Assembly (NCBI GenBank): GCA_003345555.1
Contig: PRDJ01000074.1
Location: 1-5,736 of the forward strand
Direction of reading: 5' to 3'
Length of the DNA: 5,736 nt
Origin: Candidatus Thorarchaeota archaeon
GTDB lineage: Archaea > Asgardarchaeota > Thorarchaeia > Thorarchaeales > Thorarchaeaceae
The notes beneath the pieces were generated by a model. That model had not been told where the DNA came from and made no database searches. It saw only the letters and a program-made list of their open reading frames with translations. A program made the position numbers and the translations under genes. Shown here piece after piece: positions 3 through 5,736 of the stretch (positions are counted from its first letter, which is position 1; the number at the start of each line of letters is the position of its first letter).

Positions 3-1067
3 ATCGCAACGCCCTACCTATCCCTTTTCGCGAGGATTGAGAATTTCAGGAGAGAGCAGCTGGACGAGGAGCTCTACCTGAAGAAGCGACTCGGAAAGAT
101 ACGCTGCATGCGCCGAACGATTCACATCTTGCCAAGAGAAACGATCCCCTTAGCCTATGCCGCGGCAAGAAAAGGACTACTCAAAGACGCAGTTGCCTTC
201 CTTGAGTTTCGCGGTGTCTCAATCGATGAATACGAAGCGACTTCAAAGAGGATTCTGGAAATCCTGAAGGGTCAGGAGATGACAACCTCTGAAATCAAAG
301 GGATTCTTCGAACGGAATTGAACGTGTCTGCGATTGTGGAGCAAATGTGCGATCAAGGACTACTCATAAGGGGTAGACCAAGAAAAGGCTGGAGAGGAAA
401 GGTGCAGGACTACTCACGCTTCCACGACTATTTCCCGGACTTGGACTTGACCAGAACTGAGGAAGCAGAAGCAATATCCCTGTTAGTACATCACTACCTT
501 TGCTCCTTTGGTCCAGCGACTGAAAGTGATATCGCCTGGTGGATGGGCATTGGAAAAGGCAAAGTACGGGCAGCGCTGGACAGCATTCAAGGCCAGACAG
601 AGCAAATCACCATCTCTGACCTGGACGGCACCTTCATTCTGCTGAAGTCGGACGAGAAACGTCTGAACGACACGAAGACACAAGACACGCATACGGTGAA
701 TCTGCTGCCGAACCTTGACCCTTACCTCATGGGTTACAAGGATCGTGAGAGATACCTTTCACCAGAACACAGGGAGTACGTATTTGATCGCGGTGGCAAC
801 GCTACATCAACAATCTTGCTTGACGGAAAAGTCGTCGGAGTGTGGGACTTCGAGGAAGCTGAGAAACCCTTGGTCAAGTTGCACTTCTTTGAGAAGGTCA
901 AACGAAGCGCACTAAGCACAATTCACACAGAAGCGAGAAAGACCGGAGAATTCATCGTCGAAGAAAACGTTCAGATCAAGGAGTGCGACTCAATGGTTCC
1001 TTTAACGCGGAGAAATGCGGGAGGTTTCTTGGCGCCGTTGTCCGAAACTTACCCATCTAAGACATAG
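3..1067 (+). CDS. Winged-helix DNA-binding / DNA glycosylase AlkZ-YcaQ-like family protein (HTH_42), 5' end outside the window
   Basis: The frame is open from the window edge: codons from base 3 read IATPYLSLFARIENFRREQLDEELYLKKRLGKIRC before MRRTIHIL, so ATG108 is internal. PYLSLFAR...MRRTIH, YLCSFGPATESDIAWWMG, LLPNLDPYLMGYKDR and ILLDGKVVGVW match the typical HTH_42/AlkZ layout. Confidence 0.88.
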   Translation: MATPYLSLFARIENFRREQLDEELYLKKRLGKIRCMRRTIHILPRETIPLAYAAARKGLLKDAVAFLEFRGVSIDEYEATSKRILEILKGQEMTTSEIKGILRTELNVSAIVEQMCDQGLLIRGRPRKGWRGKVQDYSRFHDYFPDLDLTRTEEAEAISLLVHHYLCSFGPATESDIAWWMGIGKGKVRAALDSIQGQTEQITISDLDGTFILLKSDEKRLNDTKTQDTHTVNLLPNLDPYLMGYKDRERYLSPEHREYVFDRGGNATSTILLDGKVVGVWDFEEAEKPLVKLHFFEKVKRSALSTIHTEARKTGEFIVEENVQIKECDSMVPLTRRNAGGFLAPLSETYPSKT

Positions 1068-2066: not shown

Positions 2067-2348
2067 TCCGCCCGCGCGATTCAAGATCTCAGTGGCAATA
2101 GGCTCTTTGAAGCCAAGGGCAATTTCCTCGGCTTCAGCTTCAAAGTCTACGACATGCAAGGCCGCGTGGCAGCAGAGATTGACAAGCTGGACGTGTGGAA
2201 GGACATCTTCTTGGGCGGGTCCATATTCGACTTCAAGAACACGTACGCGATTGTCATCAAGGACCCTGCCGTAGACCGACGAGTTGTTGTCCCTCGGGCA
2301 ATCGCTATTGATGAAGTAGTTGATGACGACAGGAAGGGTCGGCGGTAG
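2067..2348 (+). pseudogene. C-terminal remnant of a LURP-one-related / scramblase (Tubby C-terminal-like) protein
   Basis: The frame of track ORF 2154-2348 extends upstream as SARAIQDLSGNRLFEAKGNFLGFSFKVYDMQGRVAAEIDK...TYAIVIKDPAVDRRVVVPRAIAIDEV, matching the LURP-one C-terminal half (G.F...F.iyd..G..vA.I.K...Y.i.i...aiaiD). It is bounded upstream by in-frame TAG-TAA at 2061-2066, with no start codon before the conserved part. Confidence 0.7.
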
Positions 2349-2415
2349 CTCGGCCCTAAGATAGATTTCAACTAGAAAGACAGACATGCAACAAGCGCAG
2401 GCATCTCATCGATGT

Positions 2416-2672
2416 CTACCTAAAGAGCCAAACGACATCCACCGACGAAACCAGTTGCAGAGTGTGTGCAGAGGCAATGACTCCTCTTACGACAACTATC
2501 GAATGCAATGTCGCAGGACCCGCCCACACGAACACGAGTCCGCCTGTCCCGTCACTGACTGTGATTAATGTGCCTGCTATTGATGTATTGTTGCGAACAC
2601 TACAATGACAGCTGCGATTGTCAGAAGGACAGCGACGATGACCATTGGCTTAGGTTTTCCTATCTTCGGCAT
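2416..2672 (-). pseudogene. Frameshifted small membrane-anchored protein with an OB-fold-like C-terminal part (not in ORF track)
   Basis: ATG2672, preceded by GGTGG, reads MPKIGKPKPMVIVAVLLTIAAVIVVFATIHQ* (stop 2579-2577): a basic N-terminus plus one hydrophobic helix. A second frame (2589-2416) reads NTSIAGTLITVSDGTGGLVFVWAGPATLHSIVVVRGVIASAHTLQLVSSVDVVWLFR*. ITVSDGTG and VVVRGVI resemble OB-fold strands. The fold call is inference. Confidence 0.6.
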
Positions 2673-2703
2673 GCGAATCCACCAAAAGCCATTCACGTGC
2701 GGC

Positions 2704-2712
2704 AATATAAAA
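2704..2712 (-). promoter_or_regulatory. Candidate archaeal TATA box between divergent genes
   Basis: Plus strand AATATAAAA equals minus strand TTTTATATT. It lies about 35 nt upstream of ATG2672 (-) and about 30 nt upstream of ATG2739 (+), and fits the consensus better on the minus strand. Confidence 0.45.
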
Positions 2713-2738
2713 CACGCCAAGCGCGCAGTTCCCACCTT

Positions 2739-3245
2739 ATGACCAAAGAGTGTGCATCATCAGTAACTAGGAGGAGACAAGGCTCTGTACTCCTCTATGT
2801 ACTGGGTTTACTATGGTTCGCGTGGACACAGATAGTTTGCCATCCGGAAGTCGTAAGGTGGGTTGGTGTATTGTTGGCCCTTGCAGCCATACCCATGTTG
2901 GCTCGGATTCACCGTGCGTTGGGACGACAATACTCGCCTTGTTTGCAGATAAAGCAAAGCCACTCATTGATTACAGACGGGCCATACGCGAGAGTTCGTC
3001 ACCCTATGTATACAGTTCTGAGCACATTCTCGTTGGGGATGTCTTTGGTCACGGCGAACTTGCTCGTCATCTGTTTCGCGATTCTTGTAATCATTCCGTT
3101 TCCATTTGTGGCCAGAAAAGAGGAACACATGATGCTAGAGGAATTTGGAGACGAACACCGCGAGTATATGAAAAGGAGTGGTCGATTCTTCTCAAAGAGA
3201 TCCAAGAATAAGAAAACAGAAGAAGCTTCTCGGCAGTCGACGTGA
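2739..3245 (+). CDS. Isoprenylcysteine carboxyl methyltransferase (ICMT/Ste14/PEMT)-family membrane methyltransferase, possibly N-terminally truncated
   Basis: Contains LITDGPYARVRHPMY, RKEEHMMLEEFGDEHREY and GRFF plus several hydrophobic helices. The track start 2568 overlaps the opposite-strand anchored gene and gives a non-family sequence. ATG2739 (168 aa) is the most plausible remaining start. Confidence 0.8.
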   Translation: MTKECASSVTRRRQGSVLLYVLGLLWFAWTQIVCHPEVVRWVGVLLALAAIPMLARIHRALGRQYSPCLQIKQSHSLITDGPYARVRHPMYTVLSTFSLGMSLVTANLLVICFAILVIIPFPFVARKEEHMMLEEFGDEHREYMKRSGRFFSKRSKNKKTEEASRQST

Positions 3246-3294
3246 AACAGACGATTGTCAGGCAAGCCACAGTGGGAGAATCGTGCACTCTGTG

Positions 3295-3522
3295 CTACCA
3301 GACATATGAAAACAGGAACAGGATTCGACTTGCTTTCAGTGAACCTCTAGAATTCTGGAGAGCAGGATCCTTGGAGGAGTGAGGATGGTATGCCTTCGTC
3401 AATCTATTCAGGAAACAGCGATGAGGCAGAGGAGCATTCTGTGGGACTGGATGGTCACTGACGGCTCCAGCAACGAGTCCACTGGGCGCGAGGCCGAGCA
3501 GAAAGGTCAGACAGAGTAGCAT
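3295..3522 (-). CDS. Short hypothetical ORF or remnant with a signal-peptide-like N-terminus
   Basis: ATG3522 gives MLLCLTFLLGLAPSGLVAGAVSDHPVPQNAP..., a hydrophobic leader about 30 nt downstream of a CTTAAG box. The rest has no recognisable motif and may be out-of-frame decay. Confidence 0.3.
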   Translation of the reverse strand: MLLCLTFLLGLAPSGLVAGAVSDHPVPQNAPLPHRCFLNRLTKAYHPHSSKDPALQNSRGSLKASRILFLFSYVW

Positions 3523-3550
3523 GCCAAACGACAACAGGTGTTGCCATAAT

Positions 3551-3570
3551 TCTTAAGACCAAGGTCAAGA
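3551..3570. promoter_or_regulatory. Imperfect inverted repeat overlapping a palindromic TATA-like box; candidate operator or promoter
   Basis: TCTT(AA)GACC-AA-GGTCAAGA, where TCTTAAGA is itself palindromic. It lies between the divergent 3522 ORF and the wHTH gene. Confidence 0.3.
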
Positions 3571-3625
3571 GACAGTGTATTCTCTAACTGGCCATTTGCA
3601 TCCTGACATCACATGGGCGGGTGGA

Positions 3626-4096
3626 ATGTACACGAAAGAAAGGGAGGAAGACATACCGATAGGTGAGCAAGCGGAGGTCGACAGCCAACTCAGAGGGAAC
3701 ACTCTGGTCGTGTATTGGTACATGCTTCGATCCAACAAACCGCTTGGAGCCCGTGAGATACAGAGGGCAGTAGGGCTCTCAAGCTCAAGTTTGGCCTTGC
3801 ACCATCTCAACAAGCTGATAGAACTCGGACTGGTCGGAAAGGACAAGGAGGGTGCATATGTTGTTACGAGAAGAGTGAATGCGGGACTCCTTGGATTCTT
3901 CATCGGCACAGGAAGGTTGCTCTTGCCGAGATTCGTCCTCTATGCAGTCTTTTTCACTGGGGTCCTCATCTCCTCTTTGCTGGTGTTTTTCTCTCGTTTC
4001 GACGCGGTGCTGGTGACTCTACTTGTGAGTCTGGCAGTTGCCACACTCATCTTCTGGTTCGAGACTGTAAAGATGTGGAAGGCTCAGCCGCTCTAG
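3626..4096 (+). CDS. Membrane-anchored winged-helix (ArsR/HTH_20-like) transcriptional regulator with a C-terminal two-TM hairpin
   Basis: The wHTH segment LRGNTLVVYWYML...GAREIQRAVGLSSSSLALHHLNKLIELGLVGKDKEGAY is followed by two hydrophobic helices (FVLYAVFFTGVLISSLLVFF; AVLVTLLVSLAVATLIFWF). ATG3626 is directly preceded by a G-rich GGGCGGGTGGA tract and is preferred over the track GTG at 3575. Confidence 0.85.
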   Translation: MYTKEREEDIPIGEQAEVDSQLRGNTLVVYWYMLRSNKPLGAREIQRAVGLSSSSLALHHLNKLIELGLVGKDKEGAYVVTRRVNAGLLGFFIGTGRLLLPRFVLYAVFFTGVLISSLLVFFSRFDAVLVTLLVSLAVATLIFWFETVKMWKAQPL

Positions 4097-4100
4097 TTCT

Positions 4101-4118
4101 TGCTCAGATGTGCTCAGA
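4101..4118 (+). repeat. 8-bp direct repeat TGCTCAGA x2 at 10-bp spacing
   Basis: Copies at 4101-4108 and 4111-4118, plus a partial copy GCTCAG at 4082-4087. Confidence 0.75.
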
Positions 4119-4139
4119 AACTAGACTGAATAGACAACG

Positions 4140-5351
4140 ATGACGCTAGTTTGGCTGGGTGTCCGCAGTACGAGACTTCCGCTCGAAAACAGACCTGCTG
4201 CAGTCGTTATGGTGTTCCTGTTCACTCTGGGGATGCTCGTTCCAGTCATAGTGGCTGGCGTCACCTCCTCGGGTCTAGTCACGATGGGAGGAACACCTGT
4301 TGAGGACTCTGTCTTCGACGAGATTGTCACGCAGGTCCAAGATGAGGCCATGCTCCCGGGAGGTGCCGCTGGACCCACTCTGGACGGTATTCGATTGCCC
4401 ATTGATTATTCAGGACTTGAGAGGATAGACGAGTCCGTGGCTGCCGAGACCATGTTACAATTTGCAGCTCAGTCATCATACCTCACAGACCAGAATCTCA
4501 CGAGAGACGTGGTCTGGACGTGGGACAATCCTACTTGCTGGCCGCTCAGGTTCTTTGGACCCAATGTCACAGTATACGGAGCGGTGAACGCGTTCTCCGG
4601 AAAGGTGATCGACTTTCAAATAGCCTGGGACTACTCGCACGGTTCTTCGCCCTACTGGAGAGAATACAACGGGACGGACCCAATGCCAAAGGCCGAAGTT
4701 GAGGCCCACGCCCTCGAGTTTCTAAAGAACAACAACTATACTCTGGATGCTCATTCAAGGTACTTAGGACCCTTGGTGGAGCGTGGCATCCAGTATGTAA
4801 GCCAGTACGTCTACAAGCTACGCTTCTTTGACATCATCAGCGAGGTATTGGTTTGGGGAAATGTGATAGAGCTCGACCTCGACATTGAGACAGGAGAAGT
4901 GGTGAGTTTCCAGTACCACTGGGTCTTCGTTTCAAGCATCAGTACATTGGGCTCGATGAGTCGCGGCTGGGCGGAAACGCTGGCATTGAATCATCTCAGA
5001 GTCCTGAACGAACCGGTAGCATCTGTGGAGTCTTCGGTGCTCTTACTGATCGGAATTGGATCAGGTGACTACAGGCTGACATGGGTGGTTTCAGTAGATA
5101 GCGAAAGAGCGGGATCGGTATGTCTGGACGCCGTAACCGGAGAGGTGCTGGGTGTCGGCTACCATATGCTTGCTTCGCCAATCCTGCAGTCCTCACCGCA
5201 ACGGACTCTGGCGCCCCTATGGTTTTTCATTCCTGTGGTGTTTCTTCCCTCTGCACTCACTGGTCTGGCCGCATTCAGACTTGCCGGAAGAAGAGTCTGG
5301 AAGAGCTTACCTGAATCCGATGAAGAACCGTCGCCGTCAGAAAGCCCCTGA
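4140..5351 (+). CDS. Membrane-anchored surface protein with three PepSY/YcdB-YcdC-like repeats
   Basis: N-terminal hydrophobic segment (aa ~21-41) and C-terminal TM (aa ~358-381). Three repeats end in VNAFSGKVIDF (149-159), LDIETGEVVSF (247-257) and LDAVTGEVLGV (329-339). Each is preceded by an 'A..iA..fl'-type helix (ESVAAETMLQFA; KAEVEAHALEFL; SRGWAETLALNHL). N-X-T sequons at N119, N142, N177 and N199. Confidence 0.75.
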   Translation: MTLVWLGVRSTRLPLENRPAAVVMVFLFTLGMLVPVIVAGVTSSGLVTMGGTPVEDSVFDEIVTQVQDEAMLPGGAAGPTLDGIRLPIDYSGLERIDESVAAETMLQFAAQSSYLTDQNLTRDVVWTWDNPTCWPLRFFGPNVTVYGAVNAFSGKVIDFQIAWDYSHGSSPYWREYNGTDPMPKAEVEAHALEFLKNNNYTLDAHSRYLGPLVERGIQYVSQYVYKLRFFDIISEVLVWGNVIELDLDIETGEVVSFQYHWVFVSSISTLGSMSRGWAETLALNHLRVLNEPVASVESSVLLLIGIGSGDYRLTWVVSVDSERAGSVCLDAVTGEVLGVGYHMLASPILQSSPQRTLAPLWFFIPVVFLPSALTGLAAFRLAGRRVWKSLPESDEEPSPSESP

Positions 5352-5520
5352 AGGAAAGTGATTCTCAGAGACCGTGGCACGTCGCGTGATCAAGCATACA
5401 GTCAGCTCGTTCCCTTCACTGGGCCGCTTGGCGACTGCTCGGGGCGGAAGCTCTGAGTAGACTTGCAGGGATTCATGGAGATTAGGTTACTCGATAGTGT
5501 CGGGCCCGTTGCTCCTATGG

Positions 5521-5736
5521 CTACCCTGCATCCCGGGCGAACCCCTTCGTCCGCCTGCGCTCCTCAGGGAGCTGCCTAAACAGTTGGATGTGCGGTATGA
5601 GAGCCGTAATTAGCTTGTTCTCGGCCTTCTTCAGATGCTCTAGGAAGGTGGTCCTCCCCATCTTCTGCCTGGAGGCGATGGTCTGCAGGTCGGCCCCTCT
5701 CGGGTACCGAAAATAGCCCTGTGCATACGCGATAAG
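5521..5736 (-). CDS. 3' end of a bacterio-opsin-activator-type HTH_10 transcriptional regulator (5' end outside the window; not in ORF track)
   Basis: The minus strand from 5736 reads LIAYAQGYFRYPRGADLQTIASRQKMGRTTFLEHLKKAENKLITALIPHIQLFRQLPEERRRTKGFARDAG*, with the stop at 5523-5521. AY..GYF..PR...L..iA......T..EHL.KAE.KL is the HTH_10 signature. Confidence 0.9.
   Translation of the reverse strand, partial: LIAYAQGYFRYPRGADLQTIASRQKMGRTTFLEHLKKAENKLITALIPHIQLFRQLPEERRRTKGFARDAG

Follow-up and report, generated by a model that had tools for sequence, protein, structure and literature searches.

The stretch of DNA considered here, the window, is the whole of contig C74, 5736 bases from a Thorarchaeota-type Asgard genome of 2.28 Mb that is 93% complete. 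Its forward strand carries two intact, co-oriented genes, which we call A and B. Gene A encodes a short winged-helix protein tethered to the membrane, and gene B encodes a surface protein with three PepSY-like units that is anchored in the membrane at both ends. An earlier reading of the same DNA, made from its letters (the sequence-only reading), had proposed that these two genes, 43 nucleotides (nt) apart, form a signaling pair in which B senses an outside cue and controls A. Both open reading frames (ORFs) are uninterrupted, and the spacer has the length then given. The pair is laid out as follows, with lengths in amino acids (aa) and the evidence in brackets.

3626..4096 (+): gene A, 156-aa membrane-tethered winged-helix protein (ORF; 66 homologs, E down to 8e-85; family alignment)
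3659..3865 (+): A residues 12-80, ArsR/MarR/Lrs14-like winged helix-turn-helix, predicted cytoplasmic (profiles, AlphaFold2, Foldseek)
3866..3919 (+): A residues 81-98, Gly-rich basic juxtamembrane linker, conserved (family alignment, AlphaFold2)
3920..3985 (+): A residues 99-120, membrane helix 1; P101, R102 and Y106, all invariant, mark the cytoplasmic end (alignment, hydropathy, AlphaFold2)
3986..4003 (+): A residues 121-126, short outer loop (SRFD and neighbors), unconserved (AlphaFold2, alignment)
4004..4084 (+): A residues 127-153, membrane helix 2; invariant E146 and nearly invariant W144 lie close to the cytoplasmic face (alignment, hydropathy, AlphaFold2)
4097..4139 (+): A-B spacer of 43 nt, with tandem TGCTCAGA at 4101-4108 and 4111-4118 and without a T-run (sequence)
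4140..5351 (+): gene B, surface protein of 403 aa with an anchor at each end (ORF, ATG at 4140)
4197..4265 (+): B residues 20-42, N-terminal membrane helix (signal anchor), with three Arg in residues 1-19 (hydropathy, AlphaFold2, sequence)
4431..4628 (+): B residues 98-163, PepSY-like unit 1, motif VNAxSG (alignment, AlphaFold2, Foldseek)
4689..4940 (+): B residues 184-267, PepSY-like unit 2, motif LDxxTGxV (alignment, profiles, AlphaFold2, Foldseek)
4962..5162 (+): B residues 275-341, PepSY-like unit 3, motif DAxTGE, with a Pfam PepSY match at residues 304-339 (profile, alignment, AlphaFold2, Foldseek)
5211..5288 (+): B residues 358-383, C-terminal membrane helix (hydropathy, AlphaFold2)
5289-5348 (+): predicted cytoplasmic tail of B, basic then acidic (sequence)

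Architecture of the putative regulator and the surface protein

The ATG at 3626 is the likely start of A, because about 21 residues then precede the conserved LxGNTL motif, as they do in homologs; an in-frame GTG at 3575 is an alternative candidate, and the gene ends with a TAG at 4094-4096. Hydropathy places membrane helices at about residues 103-121 and 127-145. In the AlphaFold2 model (mean predicted local distance difference test score, pLDDT, of 82), the helices at 99-120 and 127-153 score above 90 and the linker at 81-98 has low confidence. The two helices form a hairpin with only about 4 to 6 residues between them. In an alignment of 26 family members, the source of all our conservation figures for A, pairwise identity is highest in the winged helix (62%), is 44% in the linker and helix 1, and is lowest in the outer loop (15%). 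Because this loop is both short and the least conserved part of the protein, A has no outside domain. Hydropathy, model and loop conservation hence bear out the earlier claim that the helices are joined by about four residues, SRFD, and that A lacks an external sensing domain. In the linker, G87, L89 and G96 are invariant or nearly so, and the strong conservation of linker and helix 1 suggests that this part does more than anchor the protein.

Foldseek matched the A model to ST1889 of Sulfolobus and to ArsR, SmtB, CadC, MarR and RovA at probabilities of 0.97-1.0, but with E values above 0.03. The recognition-helix motif is similar to that of ArsR-type DNA-binding regulators. A falls short of the cut-offs of the ArsR/SmtB family, scoring 19.2 bits against the 22 of HTH_5 (PF01022) and 24 against the 55 of NF033788, and its resemblance to that family appears to lie at the superfamily level only. 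Some A homologs carry precomputed HTH_20 matches, and a search of solved structures with the A sequence profile returned one match, at chance level. In another Asgard family, a 254-aa variant of A (L121:1207-1971) has two additional membrane helices before the winged helix.

For B, an exported repeat domain of about 300 aa and a C-terminal membrane helix had been described. Both were recovered, and we add to them the N-terminal helix at about residues 20-42, on which little stress had been laid. The exported region consists of three alpha/beta units, each a helix with a four-stranded sheet, modeled at a pLDDT of about 90 (mean of the protein, 78). B itself scored 23.3 bits with Pfam PepSY (PF03413), whose gathering cut-off is 24. 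Across 14 members of the B family, PepSY was matched in 8 (best E 6.4e-7) and DUF4901, the YcdB/YcdC repeat, likewise in 8; close B homologs carry a precomputed PF03413 match listed as "faint." The top solved match of the outer domain was the triple-PepSY structure of YpeB (5boi; E 2.9e-9, probability 1.0, 13% sequence identity). The PepSY propeptides of vibriolysin and fungalysin (3nqz, 4k90) came next, and YycI and YycH matched more weakly (probability 0.84-0.92, E ~0.015). Family profiles and fold together support the assignment of B to PepSY/YcdB, and by its predicted structure B qualifies as a tandem-PepSY protein of YpeB-like fold. The family is narrow: among 1.8 billion proteins it has only 48 representatives at the 50% identity level, and almost all are 370-420 aa long. 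We also considered B as a class III (pilin-like) signal-peptide protein and dropped this candidate, because the N terminus has about 22 hydrophobic residues in a row and lacks a pilin-type motif.

From the distribution of charges in the two sequences, the N terminus, linker and C terminus of A and both tails of B are placed in the cytoplasm. Between the genes, 41 of the 43 spacer positions are identical in relatives, and the neighboring codons diverge more. A third GCTCAG stands at 4082-4087, just ahead of the spacer; together with the tandem TGCTCAGA it could be a regulatory site.

Co-inheritance of A with membrane-anchored partners

The source genome has three A paralogs. Downstream of each, in the same orientation, lies a gene whose product has a membrane helix at either end. 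The partner on C74 is B itself, the one on C10 is a 371-aa, divergent PepSY/DUF4901-like protein, and the one on C33 is a 329-aa, probably Ig-like protein whose gene overlaps A by 37 nt. Does this arrangement hold in other genomes? A scan of species-representative genomes gave 180 A loci, of which 80 were kept for an adjacency count; with loci added later, the set came to 113. The family ranges over Thorarchaeota, Bathyarchaeia, Nitrososphaeria, Hecatellales, Brockarchaeota and other Thermoproteota. At 50 of the 80 loci, A is adjoined by an ORF in the same orientation that encodes a helix at each end; among control ORFs elsewhere in these loci, 18 of 749 (2.4%) do so. The adjacency of A and its partner is far beyond chance. 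Counting any adjacent membrane-anchored partner, 91 of the 113 loci from Asgard and TACK archaea have one. Two A loci came from bins labeled as bacteria (L051 and L057, one "bacterium" and one Methylomirabilota); since the family is otherwise purely archaeal, these are probably mis-binned archaeal contigs.

The sequence-only reading had staked its proposal on the two genes being conserved neighbors, and on this count the proposal clearly stands. A and a PepSY partner recur in about 14 distinct Thorarchaeota loci, with B mostly downstream, upstream in four, and with unrelated flanking genes. In a survey of 151 Asgard genomes, A was present in 86, including all 26 searched from the window's own family, at 1-8 copies per genome. 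Among the best 29 loci of this survey, nearly all from the window's family, 27 had a downstream partner anchored at both ends, and about half of those 27 pairs overlap, by 1 to 70 nt and most often by 4 or 37. A maximum-likelihood tree of A divides along partner lines. One clade, linked to PepSY in 14 of 14 rows (support 100/98), includes the A of the window; a separate clade is linked to a partner of about 310-370 aa in 21 of 23 rows (support 100/100). The source genome has one member in each clade and one in a second PepSY-linked group. A subfamilies track partner type.

The closest relatives (L125-L127) match the window at 90% DNA identity across 2270 nt (blastn), and what they share is limited to a block around the pair:

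3356..5616 (+): conserved block, comprising the upstream region, A, the spacer, B and about 265 nt downstream (blastn against L125-L127)
3546..3556 (+): candidate TATA-like element, AT-rich, about 75 nt 5' of the ATG of A (read from the sequence)

Outside the block the flanks differ or are rearranged on both sides; the gene upstream is unrelated, and an AlkZ-like gene has been relocated. The enrichment, the paralogs, the two gene orders, the tree and this block-limited sharing together lead us to conclude that A and its partner have long been passed on together, as a unit.

The partners differ greatly in what they expose. Their outer domains may be three PepSY units, SIMPL/DUF541, DUF4382, SBP_bac_5 or almost nothing. 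SIMPL/DUF541 partners often occur together with genes for MoxR-type ATPases. The tiny partners of Bathyarchaeia and Nitrososphaeria are 80-135 aa long and amount to little beyond two membrane helices, set apart by about 35 unstructured residues, and an end rich in K/R; a C-terminal helix followed by an R/K-rich tail recurs in the partner classes anchored at both ends. A constant output combined with variable outer domains is a combinatorial pattern typical of signaling proteins.

Two of these contexts have a gene order of their own. At L071:1-2996 and seven similar loci from Thermoproteota, Brockarchaeota and Nitrososphaeria, a four-gene array runs from a MoxR-type AAA ATPase through an HExxH-like protein of about 570 aa and a SIMPL protein with an N-terminal membrane helix to A. 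In about 20-25 Bathyarchaeia loci, A and a tiny partner lie on the opposite strand between rps19 and rpl22 (for example L041:3971-4742; also L017, L022, L028-L030, L034, L035, L037, L048, L054, L060, L061, L065, L069, L070, L073, L075, L079, L080, L082 and L083). The insertion site is inside the L3-L4-L23-L2-S19 / L22-S3-L29 ribosomal protein cluster, a conserved antisense insertion in a housekeeping cluster.

At one locus, a partner-like protein and A form a single ORF. In the Asgard genome G049, this 955-aa ORF (L115:4552-7419, minus strand) begins with an N-terminal membrane helix, continues through a NosD-like right-handed beta-helix and another membrane helix, and leads directly into a complete A module, a topology that matches the one deduced for the split pair. 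Beside it lies a second copy of A (1609-2178), which shares 4 nt with the gene (2175-4304) for an SBP_bac_5 protein that has a helix at each end. The fusion came from a genome search; a word-based search for longer or fused A homologs found none, which is weak evidence. Paralogous pairs, the A tree, the 4-nt overlaps and this one fusion all support the earlier suggestion that the two genes make up a functional membrane module.

The window has four other genes, none of which is conserved beside the pair in relatives: an AlkZ-like DNA glycosylase (3-1067, plus strand), an ATC_hydrolase-like protein (1223-2011, minus), an ICMT/PEMT-type membrane methyltransferase (2568-3245, plus) and the terminal part of an HTH_10 regulator (5521-5736, minus). 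A 79-aa ORF with a signal-peptide-like start (3295-3534, minus) lies divergent to A within the 380-nt upstream gap and partly inside the block kept in relatives, and could represent either a small gene or just promoter DNA. The TATA-like element is near-identical in relatives at 90% identity and is a possible archaeal promoter of A. Palindromes upstream of A in L005, L006 and L014 were considered as operators and rejected: they directly follow the stop of the preceding gene and have T-runs, and so look like terminators. An Rfam scan of the window gave 0 matches. Repeat, promoter and terminator scans of the window yielded weak palindromes only, from models of bacterial consensus that are little informative for an archaeon. 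PADLOC showed no sign of a defense system, with only a weak winged-helix similarity to Csa3/CARF proteins.

Probable input and output, and rival explanations

How might the two proteins work together? The sequence-only reading, which we find supported in part, had named a protease, a protein or the envelope state as possible cues, and contact between membrane helices or regulated proteolysis as possible routes of control. We consider it moderately probable that A and B are a two-gene, split transmembrane transcription-regulator system with B as input and A as output. We favor this reading because a conserved DNA-binding output is combined with variable outer inputs, production of the two proteins is matched, and the two are occasionally fused. 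The ArsR-like winged helix of A would sit in the cytoplasm, held at the membrane by the C-terminal two-helix hairpin. The three PepSY domains of B would stand at the cell surface. Because B is anchored at both ends, its short terminal tails would lie in the cytoplasm, beside the conserved juxtamembrane linker of A. What is relayed would be the state of B's outer domain, which might be bound by ligand or protein, unfolded, or clipped; a candidate cue in some relatives is a secreted subtilase whose gene immediately precedes the pair. In the membrane or just beneath it, the helices or tails of B would then act on the linker and helix 1 of A and change its oligomeric state, its access to DNA (by sequestration) or its stability (by protection from proteolysis, as for ToxR/TcpP with ToxS/TcpH). 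Transcription would be altered in this way, probably that of the module itself and of envelope genes. A complex prediction for A and B, run on the full-length proteins with their own alignments, scored 0.16 with the mark at 0.32 and speaks neither for nor against binding.

We also put forward, more tentatively and as somewhat short of probable, that the A family is the shared output of a major unrecognized archaeal outside-to-inside class, made up of split one-component systems with interchangeable surface sensors. On the same tentative footing, the sensors would be PepSY, Ig-like, SIMPL, DUF4382, solute-binding or beta-helix domains, or bare two-helix adaptors. The output would be a minimal, membrane-tethered ArsR-like regulator. 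The class might likewise span Asgard, Bathyarchaeia, Nitrososphaeria and other Thermoproteota, provide these archaea with transmembrane signaling and, in Bathyarchaeia, be wired into the ribosomal protein cluster.

Several observations weigh against a split regulator. Fold and motif, and these only, suggest that A binds DNA, because every Pfam match (HTH_5, HTH_20, LexA_DNA_bind, TrmB) was below threshold and those in NCBIfam (ArsR/SmtB, NF033788, E 2.4e-5; Lrs14; SdpR, E 0.012) were all under curated cut-offs. No operator motif shared upstream of A orthologs was found. The membrane helices of B have the lowest pairwise identity in the protein (17-21%, versus 23-31% in the outer domains), and such weak conservation seems to fit plain anchors better than a fixed helix-helix interface. 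By the criteria used, 22 of the 113 A loci have no partner, and the SIMPL and DUF4382 partners are without a C-terminal helix. Two wetland metatranscriptomes gave one RNA contig each (4655-4936 and 4952-5213); both lie inside B, reach neither A nor the A-B junction, and are open to DNA carry-over. The fusion was not found in the 60 other genomes of G049's family that were searched (1 of 61). The orthologs there are preceded by a partner gene of their own that overlaps them by 4 nt, and the fusion could stem from a one-base slip at such an overlap, natural or artifactual. Nor is a protease encoded nearby: the window contains no protease gene, and the genome has only distant subtilases.

The main rival is that A is a regulator and B simply its target. 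A would sense for itself, responding for example to the state of the membrane or to a cytoplasmic ligand, and control the adjacent envelope gene; B would be cargo, and no contact with A would be needed. We judge this explanation to be rather unlikely. A transcription factor most commonly adjoins another gene because local regulators sit beside their targets, which is the commonest arrangement. The high diversity of the partners' outer domains, the single-helix partners and the weakly conserved helices of B also agree with it, and the well-conserved helix 1 and linker of A are compatible with self-sensing. However, the tiny two-helix partners have no plausible envelope job and are nevertheless kept beside A, and the 4-nt overlaps imply matched amounts of both proteins. 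The in-frame fusion of a partner-like protein to A, and the faithfulness of A subfamilies to one partner type over long times, argue in the same direction. A separate possibility, that the two genes are chance neighbors with unrelated functions, could appeal to the fact that a 43-nt gap alone is no proof of an operon; the enrichment, the paralogous pairs, the overlaps, the occurrence of both gene orders and the agreement of the A tree with partner type make it extremely improbable, and the comparative data practically refute it.

Could the cue be a protease? In this specific form of the split-regulator reading, which we regard as unlikely, the PepSY domains of B would bind a secreted subtilase or another peptidase, as PepSY propeptides do, and the occupancy or clipping of B would set how A adjusts the expression of protease or envelope genes. 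At L005:3-1679 and L014:695-2410 (L014/L087), the gene immediately preceding A and its PepSY partner encodes a Peptidase_S8 protein of 571 aa that has a signal peptide, and remnants of such a gene occur at L006:2297-2602 and L088:1131-1343. A subtilase gene has this position in four relatives. The fold of B is similar to the inhibitory propeptides of vibriolysin and fungalysin, and PepSY has been proposed as a regulator of peptidases (Yeats et al. 2004, cited in PMC6393860). Yet most A+PepSY loci have other neighbors, and the subtilases of the window's genome are much larger and share 31-38% identity. To our knowledge, known PepSY propeptides belong to M4 and M36 metallopeptidases, not to S8. 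We think it very unlikely, in turn, that A is a structural tether, a constitutive hold on DNA or some other cytoplasmic partner at the membrane, with B connecting the complex to the envelope. The housekeeping context of A and its tiny partner within the ribosomal protein cluster of Bathyarchaeia and the presence of A in all 26 genomes searched from the window's family would suit a tether, and winged helices double as protein-binding modules. Paralogs that differ in their outer domains within one genome, however, suit sensing and not a single structural role; the recognition-helix motif is like that of ArsR-type DNA-binding regulators, and the solute-binding-type partners point to ligand sensing.

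Relation to known systems

Almost nothing has been learned about environmental sensing in uncultured Asgard and TACK archaea, and ArnR is the only membrane-bound archaeal regulator that has been studied so far. If A and B are indeed a split regulator, such pairs would give a genome-readable map of surface monitoring, be it of proteases, solutes or envelope state, and an archaeal counterpart to bacterial ToxR/ToxS or sigma/anti-sigma pairs. They would also provide a minimal system, about 150 aa and a partner, for studying the transfer of information across an archaeal membrane. A testable function would also be attached to domains of unknown function in archaea, namely SIMPL, DUF4382 and YcdB-type repeats.

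ArsR/SmtB proteins and SdpR share with A a similar recognition-helix region. ArsR proteins, however, are soluble dimers, whereas in A the membrane anchor belongs to the regulator. SdpR of Bacillus subtilis is controlled through membrane capture by SdpI, a related logic. On the side of B, the Bacillus spore protein YpeB likewise has an N-terminal membrane anchor and then three tandem PepSY domains; it partners the cortex-lytic enzyme SleB in spore germination. Unlike B, YpeB has no C-terminal anchor and no regulator partner. YycH and YycI of Bacillus and Staphylococcus are, like B, membrane-anchored proteins with outward alpha/beta domains, encoded beside a membrane signaling protein, the WalK kinase, on which they act via membrane helices (PMC7355866). 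They differ from B in having a single N-terminal anchor and in controlling a histidine kinase, not a DNA-binding protein, and their structural match to B is weak.

Archaeal genomes commonly encode transmembrane transcription regulators, about four apiece; the class is defined by a DNA-binding domain and one or more membrane helices predicted in the same protein (PMC10269533). By prediction A has both. As its DNA-binding domain is recognized only below Pfam cut-offs, the Pfam-based census could have missed it. The sequence-only reading had named no characterized archaeal example of the pairing. As far as a membrane-bound regulator is concerned, examples exist: ArnR and ArnR1 of Sulfolobus acidocaldarius, the sole ones characterized in archaea, have a cytoplasmic N-terminal helix-turn-helix and two C-terminal membrane helices (PMC6396743), which is the architecture of A when compared with theirs as described. 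ArnR, however, has HAMP-like and sensor domains between helix-turn-helix and helices (PMC6396743), whereas A, 156 aa in total, has a linker. Because the 18 residues between wing and helix 1 leave no room for HAMP or sensor domains, A appears to fall outside the ArnR type, with topology alone in common. No dedicated surface partner is described for ArnR, whereas A is paired with one. As regards a separate surface partner, the claim agrees with the literature searched: full-text searches found no ArsR-like, hairpin-anchored regulator paired with PepSY or another surface partner in archaea. The nearest mentions are generic, of PepSY-like proteins in DPANN archaea and of a secreted PepSY/M4 protease family in archaeal dark-matter islands.

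In bacteria, ToxS/TcpH-like genes stand beside some transmembrane transcription regulators, according to the same census (PMC10269533). ToxR/ToxS and TcpP/TcpH of Vibrio cholerae resemble A/B in that a membrane-tethered winged helix has an adjacent gene for an outward-facing, membrane-anchored partner; in the Vibrio systems this partner controls the regulator. ToxS and TcpH protect ToxR and TcpP from proteolysis. Unlike A, which is ArsR-like and hairpin-anchored with nothing outside, ToxR and TcpP each combine an OmpR-type domain with just one membrane helix and with a periplasmic domain of its own; A, with no Trans_reg_C match, two helices and an outer loop of 4-6 residues, is not of the ToxR type. 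ToxS and TcpH, unlike B, are not PepSY proteins and have one anchor. The bacterial and archaeal pairs are unrelated in sequence. We conclude that ToxR/ToxS and TcpP/TcpH are functional analogues of A/B and not relatives. The gene pair belongs to a widespread archaeal module that is apparently undescribed, within a general class already known from ToxR/ToxS and ArnR.

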